46,348 nucleotides of DNA from a virus. Location: IMG/VR virus record IMGVR_UViG_3300010362_000004, positions 1-46,348 of that record; one strand, written 5' to 3'. The notes under the pieces were generated by a model, which saw only the letters and a list, made by a program, of their open reading frames with translations, was not told the origin of the DNA and did no database searches. The position numbers were made by a program, and so were the translations under genes. Of the stretch, positions 3,008 through 46,348 are shown in pieces. Numbering within the stretch: the stretch's first letter is position 1; each line of letters opens with the position of its first letter.

Positions 3008-3289
3008 CTAGCGGTGGCTCGGGTGGAGCGCGCGCTCGATTGCCTCGATGCCGGCCCGTAGACAGCGCCGGTACATATCGGGGATGTCCCGTTCCTCGCG
3101 GACGGCCAGCCGCTCGACTGCTTCGACCATCTGTTCCGTGATCCAGAGGCTCAAGCGGACATTGTAGCGCCGGCTGCCCGGTCCCCGACCCCCCCGTCCG
3201 CCCCCACTGCCAGCCCCACCCGTCCCATAGCCCCGAGCGCTCCGGGGCGCCCCACGTCGGTGATCCATACGTGCTCGCTTCGATGGCAC
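3008..3289 (-). CDS. Ribbon-helix-helix (CopG/Arc-like) DNA-binding protein
   Basis: The C-terminal YNVRLSLWITEQMVEAVERLAVREERDIPDMYRRCLRAGIE fits a strand-helix-helix pattern. The N-tail is Gly/Arg-rich. The start is GTG 3289 or ATG 3268. Confidence 0.6.
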   Translation of the reverse strand: MPSKRARMDHRRGAPRSARGYGTGGAGSGGGRGGRGPGSRRYNVRLSLWITEQMVEAVERLAVREERDIPDMYRRCLRAGIEAIERALHPSHR

Positions 3290-3730
3290 AGTGTACTGGC
3301 TCTGTATAGCCCCAAAACAACCAATTTAGTAGTCAAATCGCGGCCTTTTGGCCCTCCTAGGCCACTTCTACCGCCTCCTGTCACTCATTTTGAGGCATTG
3401 TGCCCCATTCCGAGCCCAATTTCGGCCGAAAAGCGCCCCAAACACCCGTTTTCCCAGTCATTTAGCCCAGAATCGGCTTTTGAGGGCTCAAAGGGCCCAT
3501 TTCCCTCAAAACATGCGTTTTTGACTCCCCGACACCTCAAAATAGCCACCGCAGACTCACTGCCCCCCTTCCCCCGCTCAACCTATATGCTCTCATAAGC
3601 CCAGGTCGTACGGCTGTAATACGCCCTAGAGCCCAAACCTCCTAACACCCGCAAAAACACTCCACTTTCTCCATCACTCTATTACCCCCCCATTCAACAA
3701 TGATTCGCCCACTTTATCCAAGATAAATCA

Positions 3731-3758
3731 TTGACAACAAGAAAAAGGATGATAGTAC
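3731..3758 (+). promoter_or_regulatory. Sigma70-like promoter candidate
   Basis: TTGACA, 16 nt, then TAGTAC preceded by a TGa extended -10. Coordinates are +/-1. Confidence 0.4.
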
Positions 3759-4616
3759 CGCGCTCCGCGCCGCAGCCCAAGGCGGCTCTACCCTTCTCCC
3801 GATAGCCGAGACTGTTACTCCCCTCTCCGGTCCCCTGTCCTCCCTTCCTGAAAGGCTTTAGCCTCTAAGAGTACTGTGGTCATCGACCACCGCGCGGCCC
3901 TCCTCCTGCGCGGCCCGCCCATCGTGGTCGATGACCAGCCCCGCCGGCGAGGCGTTTCAGGGGTCCGGTCTTCCTAGACTTGAAAAGGGCCTCGCCGGAC
4001 CTAGAGGCGCCTGTCTCCCGAGGGGGATTCCCTTTTCCCCAAGGGGGAAACCACTGCCCCATCGCCTAGATAGAACTCTACTGCCCCCCAGAGAGCCCTT
4101 CACTGTCTGGGGAAATACGGGCTGGGGCGAGGGCGGGCCCATGGGTCGATCGGGGTACCAGGCCCCCCCTATGTCGCATGCTGCGGCGTCTGCGCTACGA
4201 CCCTCGCATCTGCTAGCGGATTCCCTAGCGGATATGCGCTCTTAGCGCCCCCGGGTGGGCAAAAGCGTCCTTTCCGCCCCTGCAGATGCCTTGTCGACGA
4301 GGCTTGGCACGCGAACTAATCGAGCGACTGTTCGATTAATCGTCTGGGCGAGCGCGGGTATCTCTACCCATTCCCGGGCGGGATTAGGCTGTCAGGATGC
4401 TGTTGCTTGGCTGTTCGATCGAGCATGAGGCGCGGGTTGGGCGAGTGGGGTAGATGCGAGGCGAGCGGCCTGGCAGCTGGGCTAGAATCGGGCGGCCTGA
4501 TTTCCCTGCGTTTGGTCAGCTGACCCTGGGTTAGTGCGAACGTCCGTTGTCAACCCGTTTTCTGGCGTAGGTTGACAAGGCTGGGCTGGGCGGAATCGGA
4601 CTGCGACACAACCGGC

Positions 4617-4656
4617 TTGACGGCTTCGTCTAGCTTGTAGTACGGTTGTAGTACGG
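4617..4656 (+). promoter_or_regulatory. Promoter candidate plus two phased TTGTAGTACGG repeats
   Basis: TTGACG (4617-4622), 15 nt, then TAGTAC (4638-4643). TTGTAGTACGG occurs at 4635-4645 and 4646-4656. Confidence 0.4.
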
Positions 4657-4955
4657 CGAGCAAAGGGACACTGGTCCCGTGCGGCATGGACGCTGGCGAC
4701 TCGCAATAGAAACTTAGAGCCCGGGCCACCGACTCGCATCGTGGCGCATACCCTCAGAGGCAGGGATGAGTAGAGCGCGATGCTGGCAGTTGAGTGGAAG
4801 GGACCGGAGCACAAAGTGGAGACCGGAGGAAGAACTGACGGTCTGTAGGGAAGTGACATGCTCAGACGGCTGCAGGGATGCGGCCGTCTATTGGATGGCA
4901 CTAAGTTTCATCCTCGCAGCGTAATTGGATGCTGCGGAATTGAAGGGAGTAGAGC

Positions 4956-5225
4956 ATGAATCGACCAATGTGTCGCATTTCGGCGTTTGCCGATACTGGC
5001 GTCTGCCGGTGGGAATCATGCGAGCAGACCGCAGCTGCGGCGCCAGAGACGGCCGAGAATGGCCTGTGGTTTTGCTATCAGCTGCAAGTGTGGATTCGGG
5101 ATAGGATCATTTTGCCATGCGCGCATGCCGAACGCGGGCTAGCGCGGATGGGAATTGCCCAAGCCGGCTGCTACGCATGCGCGCATGCGGGGGAAACGCA
5201 TGCGGCGTGCGCACAGTGTCACTGA
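4956..5225 (+). CDS. Cys/His-rich hypothetical protein (89 aa)
   Basis: AAGGGAGTAGAGC lies directly before the ATG. No family recognised. Confidence 0.7.
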   Translation: MNRPMCRISAFADTGVCRWESCEQTAAAAPETAENGLWFCYQLQVWIRDRIILPCAHAERGLARMGIAQAGCYACAHAGETHAACAQCH

Positions 5226-5239
5226 GAAAGAGGCTCGCA

Positions 5240-5407
5240 ATGAAGCAACACGGTTTGCACCCGCCGGCATGCATCTTGTGTGGGCAGTATCTCTTGCCAT
5301 GCACAGTTGAGCCGAACGGCATCCATCCAGATTACAGAGAGCAAAACGCTGATGACGACGATGGTAGTGTGGGATGGTCTCCAGATATGTACGTTCCGAA
5401 TAGCTAG
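5240..5407 (+). CDS. Small hypothetical protein (55 aa)
   Basis: Internal ATG of track ORF 5117..5407 with SD GAAAGAGG. It has a CxxC motif and an acidic tail. Confidence 0.5.
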   Translation: MKQHGLHPPACILCGQYLLPCTVEPNGIHPDYREQNADDDDGSVGWSPDMYVPNS

Positions 5408-5512
5408 AGTCTAGCTCGTGCGCCCGGCTGCGGTCGGGCGCATCATGGTAGCCTCTGAGTGATGGTCTACCGCGGCTGCAATGTCGCAGTCGCTACAAGG
5501 GAGTAGAGAAGC
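5402..5512 (+). repeat. Intergenic multi-hairpin module, copy A
   Basis: Palindrome AGCTAGAGTCTAGCT contains the upstream stop. Hairpins lie at 5419-5442, 5447-5471 and 5472-5493, followed by AAGGGAGTAGAG and the ATG. Confidence 0.7.
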
Positions 5513-6538
5513 ATGGCACATTTAGTTGAGACGCGGGCATATACGTTTAGCAACACGTTATGGCCCGGTCTGGGAACGTACCTCGGAGAGAACGGACTGG
5601 CACTAGAGGATATGATGGAGAAAGCGCACGTCAACTGGACGGTCGGTCTGCAGCGTGTGTACATCCGTGACATGCGGAATACAGACGAGCGCAGTGCAAT
5701 CGAGGTACCGAGCGCACGAGCGATCGTGCGACTGTCAGACAGCAAGCCGCTCGGCATTGCCACCGACAATTACAAGGAAACGCAGAATATCGAGAAGTTT
5801 GCGACGTTTGAGAAAGCAATCGATGGTCGCGCAGTGTGGCGGTCAATGGGCAGTCTGAAGGAGGGGTCGATGGTGTATGGGCTGGCCGAGATTCCGGGCG
5901 ACTGGAAGATTGCTGATGAAGAGCACAAGCGCTACTTGCTGGCGTTGGGCTATCACGACGGGAAGACGGCCGACCATTTCCTCTGCACAAACGTGCGAGT
6001 GGAATGCAACAATACCGCGTCGTTTGCGGTATCGAGCGCAAAGCACGCAAAGGGCGAATTGGCCAAGGGAATCCGAGTCGTGCATCGCGGCGACGTGCAA
6101 GGGAAGCTAGCGGAAGTGAGCGATACCTTTGAGCGCGCGTTAGGCGACTTCAACGGGTACAAGGAGCGCATGGAAGCGCTGACAGCCGTCAAGATGAGCC
6201 GGGATGAGCAGAGAGAAATCCTAGAGCAGATTCTCGACGGGGATTCGTCGCGCTCTGAGAAAGCGCGAGAGACGATCATGCACCTTGCATATCATGGCAA
6301 GGGGAATGCGCCGGTAGCTGGTACGGCGTATGGGTTACTGCAGGGAACGACCGAGTATGTGGACAATTACCGCATGCTCGACACGACACCAGAGCGGCGG
6401 TTTTTCTATCAGACGGACGGGGCGGGCTCGCGGTTGAAGCAGAGGATGGAAGCAACGTTGACGCGGGAATTAACCGCCGTCAATGACACGAGCGGCGTGG
6501 ACGGAGCCGCGGTGCTGGCCGATTTACTGGCCAGCTAG
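5513..6538 (+). CDS. DUF932-like phage/plasmid protein (341 aa)
   Basis: Size and the LCTNVRVECNNTASFA segment resemble the DUF932 (TIGR03299-type) family. This is recalled from memory and not searched. Confidence 0.6.
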   Translation: MAHLVETRAYTFSNTLWPGLGTYLGENGLALEDMMEKAHVNWTVGLQRVYIRDMRNTDERSAIEVPSARAIVRLSDSKPLGIATDNYKETQNIEKFATFEKAIDGRAVWRSMGSLKEGSMVYGLAEIPGDWKIADEEHKRYLLALGYHDGKTADHFLCTNVRVECNNTASFAVSSAKHAKGELAKGIRVVHRGDVQGKLAEVSDTFERALGDFNGYKERMEALTAVKMSRDEQREILEQILDGDSSRSEKARETIMHLAYHGKGNAPVAGTAYGLLQGTTEYVDNYRMLDTTPERRFFYQTDGAGSRLKQRMEATLTRELTAVNDTSGVDGAAVLADLLAS

Positions 6539-6622
6539 AGGCTAGCTTGTATCCCCGGAGCGTAGGCTCCGGGGATACGCTGGTAGCCTTTCGCTACCGA
6601 ATAAACCAAAAGGGAGTAGAGC
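6533..6622 (+). repeat. Intergenic two-hairpin module, copy B
   Basis: AGCTAGAGGCTAGCT, a 13-bp stem hairpin at 6549-6578, a GGTAGC..GCTACC hairpin at 6582-6598, then AAGGGAGTAGAGC and the ATG. Confidence 0.8.
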
Positions 6623-7189
6623 ATGAAACAGAAACGGAAGGCTGGATTTCCCGTGCCGTCCAAGGGCGTCGCATGTCTGCGTGCAGACATACACTGGAAT
6701 CCTGGTTACGGTGGCGAGCCACGTACCGGGCGATTGACACTGCGCTTCGGGACGGTCGATGGATGGGATGGCGAGTGTGGTTCCGGAGCGTATAACGACC
6801 CGCGAGATTATTTCGCCATTACCGCGTATGTCTGCCCAAAACGCGGTATCTACGGATGGGACTGTGGGTATTTGGAAACGTATTTCATCGATGGCCAGGA
6901 TTGCGAAAAGATGGCGCGCGTTTTCAAAGCAGTGGAGCATAGACTGGAAAAACTGTATGCGCAGTGTGGTCAGCGGCCATCCAGTCTCGGCGCATATGTA
7001 ATGCAGGTTGCTGGTGCCATCCAGTGTCAGCAGGTTGTCATCCGAACGGATGACGAGACATATGCACGAACGGGGGAACGGTGGCGATGCCATGCGGCGG
7101 ACATCCCATATGCGGTCGATAGCTGGGCACTAACCATCTTGGCCAACGAGCGCAAGGTGACAGGCATTAGCGGCGAGAACGCTGCATAA
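6623..7189 (+). CDS. Hypothetical protein (188 aa)
   Basis: Conserved RBS motif and protein-like composition. No family recognised. Confidence 0.8.
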   Translation: MKQKRKAGFPVPSKGVACLRADIHWNPGYGGEPRTGRLTLRFGTVDGWDGECGSGAYNDPRDYFAITAYVCPKRGIYGWDCGYLETYFIDGQDCEKMARVFKAVEHRLEKLYAQCGQRPSSLGAYVMQVAGAIQCQQVVIRTDDETYARTGERWRCHAADIPYAVDSWALTILANERKVTGISGENAA

Positions 7190-7273
7190 AGAGGCTAGCT
7201 TATTCCCCCGGCTGCAAGCCGGGGGAATGCTGGTAGTCTCTGACTACCGAAATTCAACTAGGGAGTAGGAACA
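7190..7273 (+). repeat. Intergenic two-hairpin module, copy C
   Basis: AGAGGCTAGCT, an 11-bp stem hairpin at 7202-7228, a GGTAGTC..GACTACC hairpin at 7232-7248, then TAGGGAGTAGGA and the ATG. Confidence 0.8.
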
Positions 7274-7450
7274 ATGTGGATTCTCATTGTGGTTGCGGTC
7301 GTAATCTGGGCAATCTGGAAAACGATCACGAATTCCGATCCCGGCTACGACTCGGGCCGCGACACGAGCGATCCGCACGGATTCCGTGAGCATCGCGATT
7401 GGATGGAACGGCGCCGCGCGGAGCAGAAACGCGACCCATTCGACCGCTAA
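7274..7450 (+). CDS. Small N-terminally TM-anchored protein (58 aa)
   Basis: Hand translation gives MWILIVVAVVIWAIWKTITNSD followed by a charged tail. It has the conserved RBS motif. It is below the track cut-off. Confidence 0.6.
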   Translation: MWILIVVAVVIWAIWKTITNSDPGYDSGRDTSDPHGFREHRDWMERRRAEQKRDPFDR

Positions 7451-7554
7451 CGACCGTCCTGAGCAAGTATCTGGCGCGCGACACTGGATGCACCTACGCT
7501 GGCGCCAATCGCACGAAGCCGGTAAGCGTCGCGCACGGCCGTGCACGCCGGGCT

Positions 7555-7580
7555 CCGGGGGCCGCATCGCGCGCCCCCGG
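7555..7580. terminator. Hairpin between convergent genes
   Basis: CCGGGGG, a 12-nt loop, then CCCCCGG. Confidence 0.3.
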
Positions 7581-7598
7581 GTAAGTCCCGGCTTCCGG

Positions 7599-7622
7599 TA
7601 ACACCGGACCCTGGTAACACCG
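7599..7622. repeat. Two TAACACCG motif copies (16-bp spacing)
   Basis: Copies at 7599-7606 and 7615-7622. The same octamer occurs at 7932-7939 and four times in 8434-8487. Confidence 0.7.
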
Positions 7623-7631
7623 CGGCCGGGT

Positions 7632-7835
7632 TTATTTCGGCGGCTCCTGTTCCTTCAGAAACTTCTCGAAGTCTGTTTTCCATGCCGAGAGAGTCGTCGG
7701 CTCGGCGTGCTTCTTGTCGACGTGGCCTTGATCCCACATTTCCGCGTAGCTGTTCACGAGTCCGTGCAGGGTCTGAATGAACTGCGGCCGTGCCATTGCG
7801 GGGTCGGTTTTCGCAGTCTCGGTCTTCTCCAACAT
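7632..7835 (-). CDS. Hypothetical protein (67 aa), the only reverse-strand gene in the early array
   Basis: Internal ATG of track ORF 7632..7937 preceded by AAGAAAGGGGGG. The sequence is protein-like (MLEKTETAKTDPAMARPQFIQTLHGLVNSYAEMWDQG...). Confidence 0.5.
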   Translation of the reverse strand: MLEKTETAKTDPAMARPQFIQTLHGLVNSYAEMWDQGHVDKKHAEPTTLSAWKTDFEKFLKEQEPPK

Positions 7836-7901
7836 CGGGGGCCCCCCTTTCTTTGGTGCCAGGATAACAGCAGGGGGCGACAAGGACCAGACGCGCCACA
7901 C

Positions 7902-7928
7902 TTGACCAGCGTCATACGTCTGTAGTAC
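7902..7928 (+). promoter_or_regulatory. Promoter candidate
   Basis: TTGACC, 15 nt, then TAGTAC. TGTAGTAC lies at 7921-7928, 43 nt before ATG 7971. Confidence 0.4.
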
Positions 7929-7970
7929 AGATAACACCGGGGCTGGCTAAGGCCCCAAAGGGAGTAGACA

Positions 7971-8309
7971 ATGGCTCGATTGACAATGGAATGCTTCACG
8001 CCAGCGGAGTGCAGCATGCATCGCTGGAACAATCGCGGCTGCGAGCAGGAGCGGAAGGCGATGCAGGTTGTGGCACGGTCGGGAAAACCGGCGGGCTATT
8101 CCTGGCGCCTCTGGCACGATCCCCGGCCGCGGGTCGCGTCGCGGGCGCCGAGCGGTCCGATCCGTGACTGGCGCTATCCGATGGCCGCCTACCGGAATCA
8201 GACCGCATGGAATGCCGTTGACCGCGCATCCTATGAGCGCTGCATCGAGGAATGGGACCACGGCACGCATCCATGGGCCACGTCTGCGCGGGAACGGGAC
8301 GCCGCATGA
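7971..8309 (+). CDS. Hypothetical protein (112 aa)
   Basis: AAGGGAGTAGAC RBS motif. Its stop overlaps the next start (ATGA). Confidence 0.7.
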   Translation: MARLTMECFTPAECSMHRWNNRGCEQERKAMQVVARSGKPAGYSWRLWHDPRPRVASRAPSGPIRDWRYPMAAYRNQTAWNAVDRASYERCIEEWDHGTHPWATSARERDAA

Positions 8310-8482
8310 AGCGCCAGCCGGATCATGTCTGCCCAGATTGCGGTGCGTATTCTCGCTGCCGGCGGTACGCGAACGAGCCGCCGTGTCCCGTGCCGCTCGC
8401 CATCCGCTGCGGCTCGTGCGGGCTCCGAGCGGCTAACACCGGGGCTGGTAACACCGGGGCCGATAACACCGCAGGGAGCTAA
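8306..8482 (+). CDS. Small zinc-ribbon protein (58 aa) with a repeat-encoded tail
   Basis: CPDCG...CGSCG. The C-terminal NTGAGNTGADNTAGS is encoded by the TAACACCG array. Confidence 0.55.
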   Translation: MKRQPDHVCPDCGAYSRCRRYANEPPCPVPLAIRCGSCGLRAANTGAGNTGADNTAGS

Positions 8483-8487
8483 CACCG
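8434..8487 (+). repeat. Four tandem iteron-like repeats (unit TAACACCGGGGCNGG, 15-16 bp period)
   Basis: TAACACCG at 8434, 8449, 8464 and 8480. The array spans the end of one ORF and the RBS region of the next. Confidence 0.8.
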
Positions 8488-15660: not shown

Positions 15661-16842
15661 TCAACGCGCGCTGTCCGCACGGCTGTCCGCAGCCAAGCGC
15701 TCCAAGTAGTCCGCTGCTTTAGGATTCCGCAAGCGGACGGTGGCCCCGTAGGTGTCGACCGTGACCTTGATCGAGGAGTGGCCGAGTTGCTGCTGCACCC
15801 ACTGGATGACGTCACGCTCCATGGTCTGCAGGTGAAGTGTCGCGAACGTGTGCCGGAGCGAGTGCATCGTGAAGCCGTGTCCATCAAGCTTCGCCTGCGT
15901 GAGCACGCGAGCGAATTCCCGCTGCACATTGCGGCTCCCGAGTGGCGTCCCGTTGCGGCTCACGAAGAGCCATGGCGGCACCGGCCGCCAGCCCCGCGCC
16001 ACGGCCAGCTGCGAGCGGCCCTGGATGATCTCCCCGAGCACGCGGATCAACCGGTCGGTCAGGTCCACGATGCGATCACGGCCCGTCTTCGTCTGCCGTA
16101 GCAAAGGCGCGCGGCTGCACTCCTGGGCCAGTGAGACCGTGACGAGCCCCTCGCGGGTCTCCAGCTGGACGTGGGGAATCTGCCAGGCTCGCAGTTCACT
16201 GACCCGCATCCCGGTATCGATGCCGGCCAGGAACAACGCCTGCAGCCCAGACGCCCGAGCCGCCTTCTCGAACCGACCGAGCTGCTCACTCGTCATCGCC
16301 GGCCGGACGACGTTGCTCCGAGAAATGAGCTTCCGGATTGTCTTGCTCGGATCGGACAGTGGATTGAGCGCCAGCACCTCATCCTCGGTCGCCTCGCTCA
16401 GCATGGCCCGCAGCGCCGCGAACATGAGCCGGACGGTATCGGGTGCGAAGCCGGCGTTTCGCTTGGCCACGACGAGCGCCTTGGCGTGCGCCTTCGAGAC
16501 GGCCGACAAGCGCATGGTGCCGATTTTCTGCGATCCGATTTGGAACGGCAGGACGTGCTGCTGCAGCAGGTCGTTGTAGGACCGCCAGGTCTTCGGGGCC
16601 CAGACGTCTCGATTGCTCGTGAGCCAGTGCGCGGCATAGGCTGCCACGTTCTCGGACGCATCGGGCGGTAGGCTCGGCTCCAAGGTGATCGCCGCCTGCT
16701 CCTGCAGCCGGGCAGCGTGACGATTGGCCGCCTCTTCCGTCTCGAAATACTTTGAGCGGCGCACGCCATAGGGGTCGCGCCACTCCACGAGATAACGCAC
16801 CTCACCCCGCACGCGGCAGCGGGTGACTTTGCCGAACGCCAT
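15661..16842 (-). CDS. int: Tyrosine integrase
   Basis: TGMRVSELR (Arg), HSLRHTF (H-x-x-R) and LGHSSIKVTVDTYG (His/Tyr). It is adjacent to the tRNA-like attP core. Confidence 0.92.
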   Translation of the reverse strand: MAFGKVTRCRVRGEVRYLVEWRDPYGVRRSKYFETEEAANRHAARLQEQAAITLEPSLPPDASENVAAYAAHWLTSNRDVWAPKTWRSYNDLLQQHVLPFQIGSQKIGTMRLSAVSKAHAKALVVAKRNAGFAPDTVRLMFAALRAMLSEATEDEVLALNPLSDPSKTIRKLISRSNVVRPAMTSEQLGRFEKAARASGLQALFLAGIDTGMRVSELRAWQIPHVQLETREGLVTVSLAQECSRAPLLRQTKTGRDRIVDLTDRLIRVLGEIIQGRSQLAVARGWRPVPPWLFVSRNGTPLGSRNVQREFARVLTQAKLDGHGFTMHSLRHTFATLHLQTMERDVIQWVQQQLGHSSIKVTVDTYGATVRLRNPKAADYLERLAADSRADSAR

Positions 16843-16845
16843 GGT

Positions 16846-17220
16846 CTACTCCCTTTTGACCCATGCCTTCGCTGGTCGCCCCCGATGTCGTGGGGGCGCG
16901 GCGATGGGTCCGTTGGGAGGAACATACCCGGGCACCAGTGGGACGACAACCTGGCTCCGTCCGCCCACTTCCATCATCCGGCGCTGCCAATCCAGGTACT
17001 CTCCGACCGTCGTCCGCTTGTCCTTGCCGTTGCCGAACGTGCGGAGCCGACGCGGATCGCTCGGATGCAGGCGGGCGTACTTCTGCACCTGGCGTAGGTC
17101 CCAGCCGAGCAGCAGAGCGACATCATCGAGGGCCAGGACGTGACGCGGGTTAGTCAGCTGCGCTTCGAGGAACGTGAGACGGTCGCCCGTCTCAACAGCT
17201 GCACCCCCGATATCAGCCAT
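16846..17220 (-). CDS. Excisionase-like / recombination directionality factor candidate
   Basis: It lies directly upstream of int on the same strand. VLALDDVALLLGWDLRQVQKYAR is HTH-like. Confidence 0.5.
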   Translation of the reverse strand: MADIGGAAVETGDRLTFLEAQLTNPRHVLALDDVALLLGWDLRQVQKYARLHPSDPRRLRTFGNGKDKRTTVGEYLDWQRRMMEVGGRSQVVVPLVPGYVPPNGPIAAPPRHRGRPAKAWVKRE

Positions 17221-37499: not shown

Positions 37500-37541
37500 T
37501 TGACTTCAGCTGCCAATGTGGTATACTACAGGTGTACTACA
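37500..37541 (+). promoter_or_regulatory. Strong sigma70-like promoter with two phased GTACTACA-type repeats
   Basis: TTGACT (37500-05), 16 nt, then TGgTATACT (hexamer 37522-27). TACTACA occurs at 37524-30 and 37535-41. Confidence 0.7.
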
Positions 37542-37577
37542 AAGGTCCACAGTAGGACCGAAACGAAGGGAGTAGAC

Positions 37578-37802
37578 ATGCGCAAGAGAGAATGTGCCTA
37601 CAAGGGCATGCGGATCGATCCGCAATGGAAGTCTCCATCGTGTGATGGACCCATCGCGTTCCGCATCCGCGATTACTGGCGTGGTCCCGCACGGAAGAAG
37701 CTCGGGCCGGATATGCTGCTCTGCCGAGCACATGGGGAATGGTATCGGGTCCGATCGATGCCGTTCACTCCGCAGGCAGAGGCAATCAAAGAGCCCGCAT
37801 GA
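37578..37802 (+). CDS. Hypothetical protein (74 aa)
   Basis: AAGGGAGTAGAC directly before the ATG. Confidence 0.7.
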   Translation: MRKRECAYKGMRIDPQWKSPSCDGPIAFRIRDYWRGPARKKLGPDMLLCRAHGEWYRVRSMPFTPQAEAIKEPA

Positions 37803-45466: not shown

Positions 45467-46302
45467 TGCGTGCCTACGGCATCACGAACGCGGCCCCGTA
45501 CGCGAACGCGCCAGCGGTCGGCGCATCGGGCGACACGTACTGGAATACCACCGATCAGTCGCTCTATGTCTCGAACGGCACGGCCTGGGTCAAGGCCGGG
45601 CCAGGCGCGGGCGGTCCCCCGTCGGGGACAGCGGGCGGCGACCTCACGGGGAGCTACCCGAATCCGACCATTGCTGCGAATGCGGTCGGCAACGCGGAGA
45701 TTTCCGACGTCGCGTGGGCCAAGGTCACGGGCGCACCGACGAGTCTACCGCCCTCGGGTGCGGCGGGTGGTAGCCTCGCCGGCACGTATCCGAATCCGTC
45801 CATTGCAGCACTGGCCGTGTCGGCAGCTAACCTCGCGGTGCGAACGGCACCGTACGGGTACGCCTTTGGGGGTTCGTTCAATGCACAATGGAACTGGCCC
45901 ATGGACGGGAATTGGTACGCGGCGGCATCGTGCCAACCAACGTTACTCGATACCAACGCGCGGTTAGTGCTCGTGTTGGGTGTGATTATTGCCCATGTGC
46001 AGTGTACATCCCAACCTGCAAGCGCGTTCGGGTTCAATGTCGCAACGCGGCTCTACAAGGGCGGCACCTGGGGACAACCGGACGGGACAACGTTAGCGGA
46101 TACGTTCTCCGCGTTTGGGACGGGATTTGCGCTCAACACAATCAACGGCCTGTACTGGCATTTTACGCACATTCTGCCGTTCTTGGATACGCCGTCTGGC
46201 GGCGGCTCACCGATCTACAAGGTCGCCGTGCAGGCGGGTGCGGTCCCAAACTTCGCGATGGCGCTTATTTCGTATCACATTCACGCGATTTGCTTCCCAT
46301 GA
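45466..46302 (+). CDS. Tail fibre protein paralogue (279 aa)
   Basis: ATGA overlap start. GGDLTGSYPNPTIAANAV and GGSLAGTYPNPSIAALAV repeats. The 3' end lies in the terminal repeat. Confidence 0.75.
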   Translation: MRAYGITNAAPYANAPAVGASGDTYWNTTDQSLYVSNGTAWVKAGPGAGGPPSGTAGGDLTGSYPNPTIAANAVGNAEISDVAWAKVTGAPTSLPPSGAAGGSLAGTYPNPSIAALAVSAANLAVRTAPYGYAFGGSFNAQWNWPMDGNWYAAASCQPTLLDTNARLVLVLGVIIAHVQCTSQPASAFGFNVATRLYKGGTWGQPDGTTLADTFSAFGTGFALNTINGLYWHFTHILPFLDTPSGGGSPIYKVAVQAGAVPNFAMALISYHIHAICFP

Positions 46303-46348
46303 TGCTCGCAGAAGCGGAAGGCAATGGGCCGGTCGTCACGGACGCCCC
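46226..46348. repeat. Terminal direct repeat, copy 2 (equals 1-123)
   Basis: Same 123 nt as the window start. This is an assembly overlap or terminal redundancy. Confidence 0.9.

Follow-up and report, generated by a model that had tools for sequence, protein, structure and literature searches.

A promoter-less, RNA-structured module repeated between genes of the predicted early operon of an uncultivated phage

Three spacers between early genes in IMG/VR virus record IMGVR_UViG_3300010362_000004, analysed over all of its 46,348 nucleotides (the window hereafter), raise the question of which element recurs at these gene boundaries and what it may do there. The original prediction, made from the sequence alone, held them to be copies of one element carrying two hairpins. 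This is indeed the case: the spacers 5406-5515, 6537-6625 and 7190-7276 align block by block as copies of one element of 60-110 bases, and alignment, motif excess and a covariance model agree on it. The element, which we call the module, is a promoter-less, RNA-structured boundary between gene cassettes, and it is new in this form; the logic of mobile cassettes to which it conforms is known, being similar to that of the promoter early stem-loop (PeSL) cassettes of T4-like phages.

From 5' to 3', the module consists of a conserved box (box A), a first hairpin (hp1), a 3-nt linker, a second hairpin (hp2), an AU-rich linker (in module 1, a third hairpin, hp3), the ribosome-binding site (RBS) AAGGGAGTAGA and the ATG of the next gene. 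Box A reads AGAG(G/T)CTAGCT(T/C)(G/A) and starts 0-2 nt from the upstream stop codon in all of the seven copies identified, three in the window and four in the relatives described below. hp1 is rich in G+C, has a 3-4 nt loop and differs in sequence from copy to copy, its stem measuring 11-13 bp in the window and 11-15 bp across the seven copies, while hp2 has the form GGTAG(C/T)..(G/A)CTACC, with a loop of 3 to ~13 nt. All seven copies terminate in AAGGGAGTAGA-N3-10-ATG. The parts found in the window are the following:

5406..5418, plus strand: box A of module 1 (AGAGTCTAGCTCG), overlapped by 2 nt by the TAG stop of the 55-residue gene 5240-5407
5418..5443, plus strand: hp1 of module 1, 11 bp including two G.U pairs, loop UGCG
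5447..5471, plus strand: hp2 of module 1 in a long form, GGUAG..CUACC lengthened by CC/GG and UC/GA
5472..5493, plus strand: hp3 of module 1, 8 bp, of other sequence in the L146 module upstream of DUF932
5497..5515, plus strand: RBS AAGGGAGTAGA of module 1 and ATG of the DUF932 gene (5513-6538)
6537..6549, plus strand: box A of module 2 (AGAGGCTAGCTTG), overlapped by 2 nt by the TAG stop of the DUF932 gene
6549..6578, plus strand: hp1 of module 2, 13 perfect bp, loop GUAG
6582..6598, plus strand: hp2 of module 2 (GGUAGC CUUUC GCUACC), whose 5' half is also complementary to box A
6610..6625, plus strand: RBS AAGGGAGTAGA of module 2 and ATG of the gene for a 188-residue orphan (6623-7189)
7190..7202, plus strand: box A of module 3 (AGAGGCTAGCTTA), immediately 3' of the TAA stop of the 188-residue gene
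7202..7228, plus strand: hp1 of module 3, 12 perfect bp
7232..7248, plus strand: hp2 of module 3 (GGUAGUC UCU GACUACC), with a compensatory change from C-G to U-A relative to module 2
7259..7276, plus strand: RBS TAGGGAGTAGG of module 3 and ATG of the 58-residue membrane-protein gene (7274-7450)

Motif counts were compared with those of dinucleotide-preserving shuffles of the window. Allowing at most one mismatch, AGAGKCTAGCT is matched 5 times against 0.63 expected, a figure reached by none of 100 shuffles, and the RBS box AGGGAGTAG 14 times against 5.2 expected, seven of these matches being exact and five of the seven lying within 4944-7967; the pattern TGGTAGYCT-N3-12-CTACCG is found 3 times, against 0.00 expected. 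The three spacers likewise fold far more stably than their shuffled versions (z = -4.4, -5.5 and -5.1), and the 46 kb contain just four perfect Watson-Crick stems of at least 9 bp with a 3-8 nt loop, two of which are the hp1 of modules 2 and 3.

Some details of the module had to be redrawn. It had been defined by a palindrome at the upstream stop codon, which in its full form, AGCTAG-AGN-CTAGCT, is present in copies 1 and 2 only, copy 3 having just AGAGGCTAGCT; the palindrome was rejected as a functional unit, its left arm being coding sequence and missing in 4 of the 7 copies. It is complete only where the upstream protein ends in Ser-stop (AGC TAG), and the conserved unit is box A. Of the hp1 stem lengths first given, the 13 bp of copy 2 stand, while copy 1 has 11 bp, two of them G.U, rather than 8; the layout thought common to all copies does not extend to copy 1, with its longer hp2, its third hairpin (5472-5493) and its lack of a GAA linker. 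Two features had escaped notice altogether, namely the presence of box A at the stop codon in every copy and its complementarity to hp2, which creates an alternative long hairpin. The tetranucleotide CTAG is depleted genome-wide, with 61 occurrences observed and ~153 expected from base composition; five CTAGs are nonetheless retained across the three box A copies.

Other ways of reading the spacers were discarded. An open reading frame (ORF) that starts at a UUG within box A has no conserved counterpart in copies 1 and 3, a tRNA-like or transfer-messenger-RNA-like punctuation element was rejected, and a sigma-54 promoter, suggested by TGGTAG...GC, was ruled out on reading the sequence by its spacing and by copy 3, which has no GC.

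How far does the element extend beyond the window? A covariance model was built from four copies and run with filters off on the window and its relatives. It returns exactly seven sense-strand copies in three contigs, with E values from 1e-22 to 1e-8: 5406-5472, 6537-6599 and 7190-7249 in the window, 124-193 and 1237-1297 in fragment L146, 511-577 and 1538-1603 in fragment L149. The three copies left out of model building were recovered at 1e-11 to 1e-8, and a model built without copy 1 recovers that copy at E = 1e-9. No fourth copy was found in the window with the model, the next plus-strand match scoring 11.9 bits. L146 (1.4 kb) and L149 (3.6 kb) are related fragments of one Joint Genome Institute (JGI) sample, detected by a metagenome scan; the former carries a DUF932 gene 68% identical in DNA to that of the window. 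A protein search with the neighbouring 67-residue gene (7632-7835) added a further relative, L154, of 573 nt, which shares its sample of origin with the window.

The database search proposed along with the original prediction was therefore productive in metagenomes, with four copies in these two fragments, and fruitless elsewhere, since no genuine copy emerged when IMG/VR and 185,579 genomes (one per GTDB species) were scanned for the motifs. The loose matches in IMG/VR, inspected by eye and by script, are chance ones, and so is the sole match in the genome collection, which falls in coding DNA of an Aquificaceae metagenome-assembled genome. Four further loci (L147, L148, L150 and L151, from JGI samples Ga0307507/12/15) match the module pattern by chance and are unrelated repeat loci of low G+C; they belong to a repeat family of their own, ..AGAGTCTAGCTTTAAGCTAGAATTATTATAGATTGGTAGACTGAGT.. 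followed by tandem units of the GCTCTACC type, which recurs across several contigs. Nothing in Rfam, put, leaders and cis-regulatory RNAs included, reaches the gathering score, the matches at E<=1 being chance hairpin matches to a microRNA model. Two more distant DUF932 loci, L144 (52% DUF932 identity) and L145 (43%), have no module according to the covariance model; in both, a G+C-rich hairpin without U-tract directly follows the DUF932 stop codon and precedes a conserved, lineage-specific RBS. The element is so far known from one complete phage genome and three fragments.

Compensatory stem changes between copies had been described at the outset, and taken as a sign of selection for pairing; both points hold. 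In the seven copies all of the 11 modelled hp1 pairs show compensatory double changes and 100% of the cells are paired, counts which are inflated because the alignment was fitted to the model. None of 500 shuffles reaches any of five measures of hp1 pairing, sliding the partner by 1-3 columns lowers pairing to 30-50%, and each copy, folded independently, yields the same perfect helices as the model. Covariation and independent folding together show that hp1 pairing is under selection. The 14 pairs of the hairpins which are not Watson-Crick are all G.U, with no A.C among them, and in every one of the seven copies the sense strand folds more stably than its complement, with a margin of 0.4-11.5 kcal/mol. 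Mismatches confined to G.U and the energy bias towards the sense strand argue for a structure of the sense RNA, or of the plus strand in single-stranded form, rather than for a palindrome in duplex DNA.

The second hairpin is real as well. Four of its pairs are invariant, one changes from G-C to G.U and another undergoes a double change, from C-G to U-A. Different, lineage-specific extra pairs lengthen it in the two modules that precede DUF932. Box A is an inverted repeat of the 5' half of hp2, which we call box B (AGAGGCUA / UAGCCUYU), and pairing of the two boxes produces a lower stem of 8-9 bp, stacked under the 11-13 bp of hp1, and hence a long interrupted hairpin which competes with hp2. 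This long hairpin is the RNAalifold consensus and the minimum free energy structure in 4 of 7 copies; the hp2 fold is preferred in two, and the two folds nearly tie in the remaining one, the energy gap between them ranging from 0.6 to 5.3 kcal/mol in six copies (L146b was left out, as the constraint failed). The lower stem is 94% paired. The only substitution in box B, a C to U in module 3, keeps a G.U pair with box A and is compensated in the 3' arm of hp2, matching, as a single event, what a dual-pairing constraint predicts. As modelled, the long A:B plus hp1 hairpin is a credible alternative fold.

Two mutually exclusive folds lying so close in energy might form a bistable, riboswitch-like device, where a ribosome terminating on the upstream gene would cover box A and allow hp2 to form (ON), while failure to translate upstream would leave A:B paired (OFF, or cleaved). 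We regard such a switch as quite unlikely. The constant distance of 0-2 nt between box A and the stop codon is what the device would need, three-way pairing would explain why A, B and the 3' arm of hp2 are conserved in sequence and hp1 is not, and the RBS contains a conserved GUAG that could pair with CUAC in the 3' arm of hp2. Predicted pairing between this arm and the Shine-Dalgarno (SD) sequence, however, amounts to 4-5 bp only, and sequestration of the SD by the arm was discarded for its weak effect. Upon masking of box A, SD accessibility rises from 0.24 to 0.77 in one copy, by about 0.05 to 0.23 in five, and falls slightly in another; a translational operator acting by SD sequestration, one of the roles first proposed, receives from this in silico masking a weak and inconsistent support. 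Box A, moreover, is degenerate in L149b and mismatched in module 1, and A and B do not covary.

The same two boxes could be recognised in DNA. A and B might be half-sites for a phage protein, in the manner of the stop-operators of mycobacteriophage L5, or parts of a single-strand recombination site of attC type used by a Xer-like recombinase. Both attC sites and L5 stop-operators are found, like the module, at a stop codon or across it, where one cassette or gene gives way to the next; attC folds as a stem, a spacer, a stem and a variable hairpin, and stop-operators are asymmetric boxes, all in one orientation, in short intergenic gaps. In attC, the A:B stem would have its counterpart in the R box, the internal loop in the spacer and the variable hairpin in the variable terminal structure. 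A and B being mutually inverted repeats, the model also matches these loci on the reverse strand, with scores of up to 33.6 bits. Boxes A and B, unlike hp1, are conserved in sequence, CTAG is kept in box A while avoided elsewhere, the genes at modules differ between relatives, and two Xer-like tyrosine recombinases are encoded by this 46-kb phage (9481-10455, plus strand, and 15661-16842, minus strand). The distance between A and B, however, varies from ~29 to 37 bp, a misfit for a rigid double-stranded operator, and the variable loop of hp2 also fits poorly with an operator of fixed spacing. G.U-only mismatches and a sense-strand bias in all copies are unexpected for duplex DNA, this asymmetry pointing to RNA; there are three sites only, in one operon, against dozens of stop-operators per genome. 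As to attC, the RYYYAAC/GTTRRRY cores are absent from both boxes, the integron-integrase model TIGR02249 gives the two recombinases 49 and 36 bits against a cut-off of 265, and in the one informative case hp1 moves with the downstream gene, whereas attC moves with the upstream one. Little credence can thus be given to an element acting as DNA. Equally doubtful are two bolder versions of these ideas: a portable, translation-sensing cassette boundary, in which a ribosome on box A would convert the long hairpin into hp2, as a reusable 60-nt device coupling neighbouring genes, or an integron-like site where cassettes would recombine as single-stranded DNA through the Xer-like recombinase.

Short, repeated, intergenic sequences with terminal inverted repeats (here A and B) around a hairpin also bring to mind selfish miniature inverted-repeat transposable elements, of the REP or Correia kind, spread through intergenic spaces with no function for the phage. 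This origin is highly improbable. All copies of the module stand in the same orientation, at a constant register relative to the stop codon at one end and with hp2 and the RBS at the other; neither a target-site duplication nor a transposase partner is visible. Box A, B/hp2 and the RBS core (GGGAGTAGAGCATG) show no difference between window and L146, against 68% identity in the coding DNA next to them, which indicates purifying selection or conversion. Finally, neither the remainder of the genome nor any other collection scanned contains the element.

By sequence, the early region reads as a single rightward operon. Its G+C content is 58-59%, below the 64% of the genome, and its order is: promoter (4617-4656), ORFs 4766-4924, 4956-5225 and 5240-5407, module 1, the DUF932/TIGR03299 gene (5513-6538), module 2, the gene for the 188-residue orphan (gp188, 6623-7189), whose product has no relatives in a protein database search, module 3, and the gene for the 58-residue membrane protein (gp58, 7274-7450), after which a hairpin between convergent genes ends the unit. 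Given the promoter predicted at 4617-4656, the three modules would lie inside one transcription unit. They stand between genes throughout it and not just after the promoter; this, and the lack of an Rfam match, led us to drop the put-like antitermination RNA that had been listed among the candidate roles. Two promoters were recognised by reading the sequence:

4617..4656, plus strand: putative sigma70-like promoter for the early operon, TTGACG followed by two TGTAGTAC
7902..7931, plus strand: predicted promoter TTGACC-N18-TACAGA with a TGTAGTAC box, kept in L149 and L154

The TGTAGTAC box has only four occurrences in the genome, at 4636, 4647 and 7921 on the plus strand and at 37534 on the minus strand, each overlapping the -10 region of a predicted promoter of the TTGACN type. 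The motif is conserved in L149 and L154, and is probably an operator or promoter signature of this phage lineage.

Is the arrangement of hp2 and RBS peculiar to the modules? Looser combinations of a hairpin and an RBS had been reported before the ATGs at 4956, 7971, 20238 and 37578, and are found as described. Three of them were delimited as reduced versions, two in predicted promoter-proximal 5' untranslated regions (UTRs):

4914..4958, plus strand: reduced version, hairpin CGCAGC../..GCUGCG, then GAAUUGAAGGGAGTAGAGCATG, before gene 4956-5225
7939..7973, plus strand: reduced version in a predicted promoter-proximal 5' UTR, hairpin GGGGCU../..GGCCCC, then AAAGGGAGTAGACAATG, before gene 7971-8309
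37544..37580, plus strand: reduced version in a predicted promoter-proximal 5' UTR, GGUCC acagua GGACC GAA acg AAGGGAGTAGAC ATG, before the 74-residue ORF from 37578

RNA upstream of genes with a GGGAGTA RBS is more stable than upstream of other genes (-14.7 vs -11.1 kcal/mol, p = 0.012; p = 0.052 without the three modules). Inverted repeats precede the RBS box at three of its seven exact sites, with arms of 6-7 bp (hp2) and 11-13 bp (hp1). In three out of four predicted promoter-proximal 5' UTRs (those at window position 7939, in L149 and in L154) the hairpin starts ~0-3 nt from the transcription start expected from the sequence. This phage generally places a hairpin immediately 5' of its invariant, strong SD box.

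Comparison with the relatives, which had been recommended as a check for genes gained or lost exactly at the modules, gave a positive answer. DNA homology between window and L146 runs from the RBS before DUF932, through the gene and module 2, to 5-8 nt past the next ATG; between window and L149, it ends within the RBS. In the window, the gene 3' of the module that follows DUF932 is gp188; L149 has a 51-residue membrane ORF there and L146 a Cys-rich one, the three being unrelated to each other. Window and L146 also carry unrelated genes 5' of the module that precedes DUF932. L149 has its gp188 homologue (53% identity) 1 kb further on, behind the conserved predicted promoter and a 31-residue ORF, and the module of this homologue combines a degenerate box A with an hp1 top (CCCCGGAGC/GCUCCGGGG) identical to that of module 2 in the window. 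In L154, the gp188 homologue lies directly behind the promoter, after an unrelated 6-bp hairpin and the same RBS. Homologues of gp58 and gp112 retain their positions. Gene content changes, in summary, at modules or at the reduced hairpin-RBS forms.

Gene swaps are also marked by PeSLs (Arbiol et al. 2010, PMC2839356; Comeau et al. 2014, PMC4122927), to which the module had been likened from the beginning. The likeness is real in architecture and in the association with gene swaps. In both cases a short composite motif is repeated between small early ORFs, with a stem-loop first, a conserved box next, and the SD and start codon of the following gene at the end, and in both it occupies places where close relatives differ by the insertion, deletion, replacement or displacement of ORFs. 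The main rival explanation is a terminator-promoter cassette of PeSL type, in which hp1 would terminate or attenuate transcription of the upstream gene and TGGTAGCCT would restart it for the downstream one as an extended -10 (TGnTAnnnT). The latter pattern is present in 5 of 7 copies, TGGTAGCCT agrees at 7 of 9 positions with the extended -10 of the best predicted promoter of the genome (TGGTATACT at 37519-37527), and the order stem-loop, promoter, SD, ATG matches that of PeSLs, which mark gene swaps (PMC4122927). As first remarked, hp1 has no 3' U-tract, its tails being GCUGGUAG or CAUGGUAG, and a terminator scan reports no terminator at the modules; canonical U-tract terminators, however, are not enriched anywhere in the genome, so that the missing U-tract is weak evidence against termination.

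It is the promoter that fails. PeSLs have a sigma70-type promoter (-35, N17, -10), whereas the -10-like box of the module is an arm of a co-varying hairpin; no -35 box is found, its position falling in the variable 3' arm of hp1, and a promoter scan finds nothing in the modules. The recognisable promoters of the phage all consist of TTGACN and a TGTAGTAC box. The critical last T is lost in L146a (TAGCGC) and TGG is replaced by CGG in L149b, hp2 pairing being kept in both, and a -10 box would require neither the conservation seen in the 3' arm, GCTACC, nor the covariation of this arm with the 5' one. Hairpins of unrelated sequence, furthermore, hold the same place before the RBS in predicted promoter-proximal 5' UTRs. 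The module also adds a stop-codon box and an alternative long hairpin, in a phage unrelated to the T4-like ones, with capsid and portal of SU10 type. Since the defining promoter feature fails, the module is not a PeSL, and a terminator-promoter cassette is, in our judgement, unlikely.

The function that we favour, and to which we would give an even chance, is that of an intercistronic mRNA module, composed of a barrier hairpin for the 3' end of one message, a hairpin next to the RBS for the 5' end of the other and, possibly, a processing site, with recombination as a by-product. hp1, free in sequence and very stable, would be the 3' barrier of the upstream cistron, a decay terminator and possibly a weak pause or termination site. 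hp2, a small hairpin just 5' of the invariant strong SD box AAGGGAGUAGA, would act as the 5' hairpin of the downstream cistron, a role suggested by the similar hairpins at the 5' ends of promoter-proximal mRNAs; it would protect the 5' end of the mRNA and keep the RBS within the unstructured AU-rich linker. A 5'-terminal stem-loop reportedly shields mRNA from 5'-end-dependent decay, according to Belasco and co-workers. The long A:B plus hp1 hairpin, with about two helical turns and an internal loop, has the geometry of bacterial RNase III single-cut sites: the polycistronic RNA might be cut on its 3' side, leaving hp1 on the upstream mRNA and freeing box B, which would then refold as hp2 where the downstream mRNA now begins. 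Internal loops are known to limit RNase III to a single cut, which leaves a protective 3' hairpin (PMC1540722), and protective structures at 3' and 5' ends, together with differential decay, shape operon stoichiometry (PMC5927463, PMC4423207). Each ORF would in this way become a self-sufficient expression cassette. The same 60-90 nt being repeated between unrelated ORFs, we propose that homologous recombination may swap ORFs between relatives at the modules.

Several points weigh against this interpretation. RNase III cleavage would follow from the modelled geometry only, and the lower A:B stem on which that geometry depends is devoid of compensatory changes and disrupted in two of the seven copies (module 1 and L149b). 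The linker between hp1 and hp2 is just 3 nt long, without an RNase E-type site. A plain stabiliser leaves the strict sequence conservation of boxes A and B unexplained and needs either dual pairing or an unknown protein, and the shifts in predicted SD accessibility caused by box A masking are mostly slight and inconsistent. No more than three related genomes supply the seven copies, which are hence not independent, and the pair counts derive from the fitted alignment mentioned above. Lastly, nearly all junctions of the early region differ between relatives, so that the link between modules and breakpoints may be unspecific: with three fragments only and almost every junction a breakpoint, specificity for the modules is not demonstrable.

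Other known systems share traits with the module. The SAS and ESAS repeats (start-associated sequences and their extended form) of Cluster K mycobacteriophages (Pope et al. 2011, PMC3203893) include a 13-bp box, GGGATAGGAGCCC, 3-8 bp before start codons; as in our case, an invariant RBS box lies a few bases before the starts of a subset of non-structural genes, and about half of the SAS sites have imperfect inverted repeats with a variable spacer directly upstream, all in one orientation. ESAS arms, in contrast, are 17 bp long, separated by a 4-13 bp spacer and conserved in sequence, while the module has two or three hairpins, one of them conserved in structure only, and a stop-codon box. The SAS sequence itself has chance-level matches in the window, none at a module, the analogous box here being AAGGGAGTAGA. 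Stable hairpins without U-tract between cistrons of one operon are typical of the protective stem-loops of malE-malF, puf, pap and cip-cel (PMC5927463, PMC4423207), where the 3' one blocks exonucleases and the 5' one protects the downstream segment after endonucleolytic cleavage. Those are individual structures, however, and not a repeated module, and have no conserved flanking boxes, no fixed RBS and no link with gene shuffling. The predicted long hairpin recalls in geometry the early RNase III sites of phage T7, of the R1.1 type (PMC1540722). These are repeated intergenic hairpins of an early operon, with about two helical turns and an internal loop, and once they are cut, at one position only, the upstream mRNA retains a 3' hairpin that protects it. 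Cleavage of the module is only predicted, its lower stem is 8-9 bp long and competes with hp2, and there is no sequence similarity to the T7 sites.

The 123 nt at both ends of the window are identical (1-123 = 46226-46348) and an independent Logan contig, L143, spans the junction; the window is therefore a complete 46-kb genome (~46.2 kb, 64% G+C), either circular or circularly permuted. It derives from metagenome contig k141_1109006 of ENA ERZ27257142. Genes on the minus strand encode the SU10-type capsid and portal, the large terminase and a tail lysozyme. No DNA similarity to deposited phages was found in INPHARED (n=50,697 genomes), and the capsid protein is at most 33% identical to known capsids. 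A 393-residue protein encoded at 38492-39673 matches the outer-membrane beta-barrel family Phenol_MetA_deg (PF13557, E = 1.4e-7); on this match, the gene suggests a diderm host and may be a moron that modifies the host surface.

A few more sequence features deserve mention. The second recombinase gene (15661-16842, minus strand) carries the AGGGAGTAG RBS box upstream, at 16846-16854 on the minus strand. The 8-mer TAACACCG, inside (G/C)NTAACACCG(G/C), is present in seven copies, on the plus strand only, within 7599-8487 (starts at 7599, 7615, 7932, 8434, 8449, 8464 and 8480), clustered near the minus-strand 67-residue gene and the genes after it, and is also found in the relatives (L149 1035-1075 and 2810-3070; L154); these copies look like iterons or operator repeats for a DNA-binding protein. 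The ~1.5 kb at 3270-4765 contain no convincing gene call, their first few hundred bases looking G+C-poor and pyrimidine-rich, and include, besides several G/C hairpins, an inverted repeat with perfectly matching 14-bp arms (3877-3890 / 3924-3937); the region could be a phage attachment site (attP), an origin or a non-coding RNA. The small Cys/His-rich ORF 4956-5225 contains the 13-nt palindrome CATGCGCGCATGC twice (5116-5128 and 5176-5188), 60 nt apart.

Early regions of phages are rich in small orphan genes which come and go, and how their expression is kept up is poorly understood. The module furnishes every ORF with one common set of parts: stop-codon box, barrier hairpin, 5' hairpin and strong RBS. 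Uniform expression would thereby be accounted for, and so would the easy exchange of ORFs through short-homology recombination. The idea of a mobile regulatory cassette is thereby extended, from the promoter and terminator version of T4-like phages to a promoter-less RNA version in an unrelated, uncultivated lineage of high G+C. With 60-90 nt, two predicted competing folds and seven natural variants carrying compensatory changes, the module is handy for reporter assays and structure probing, and may possibly be useful as an insulator part for synthetic operons.

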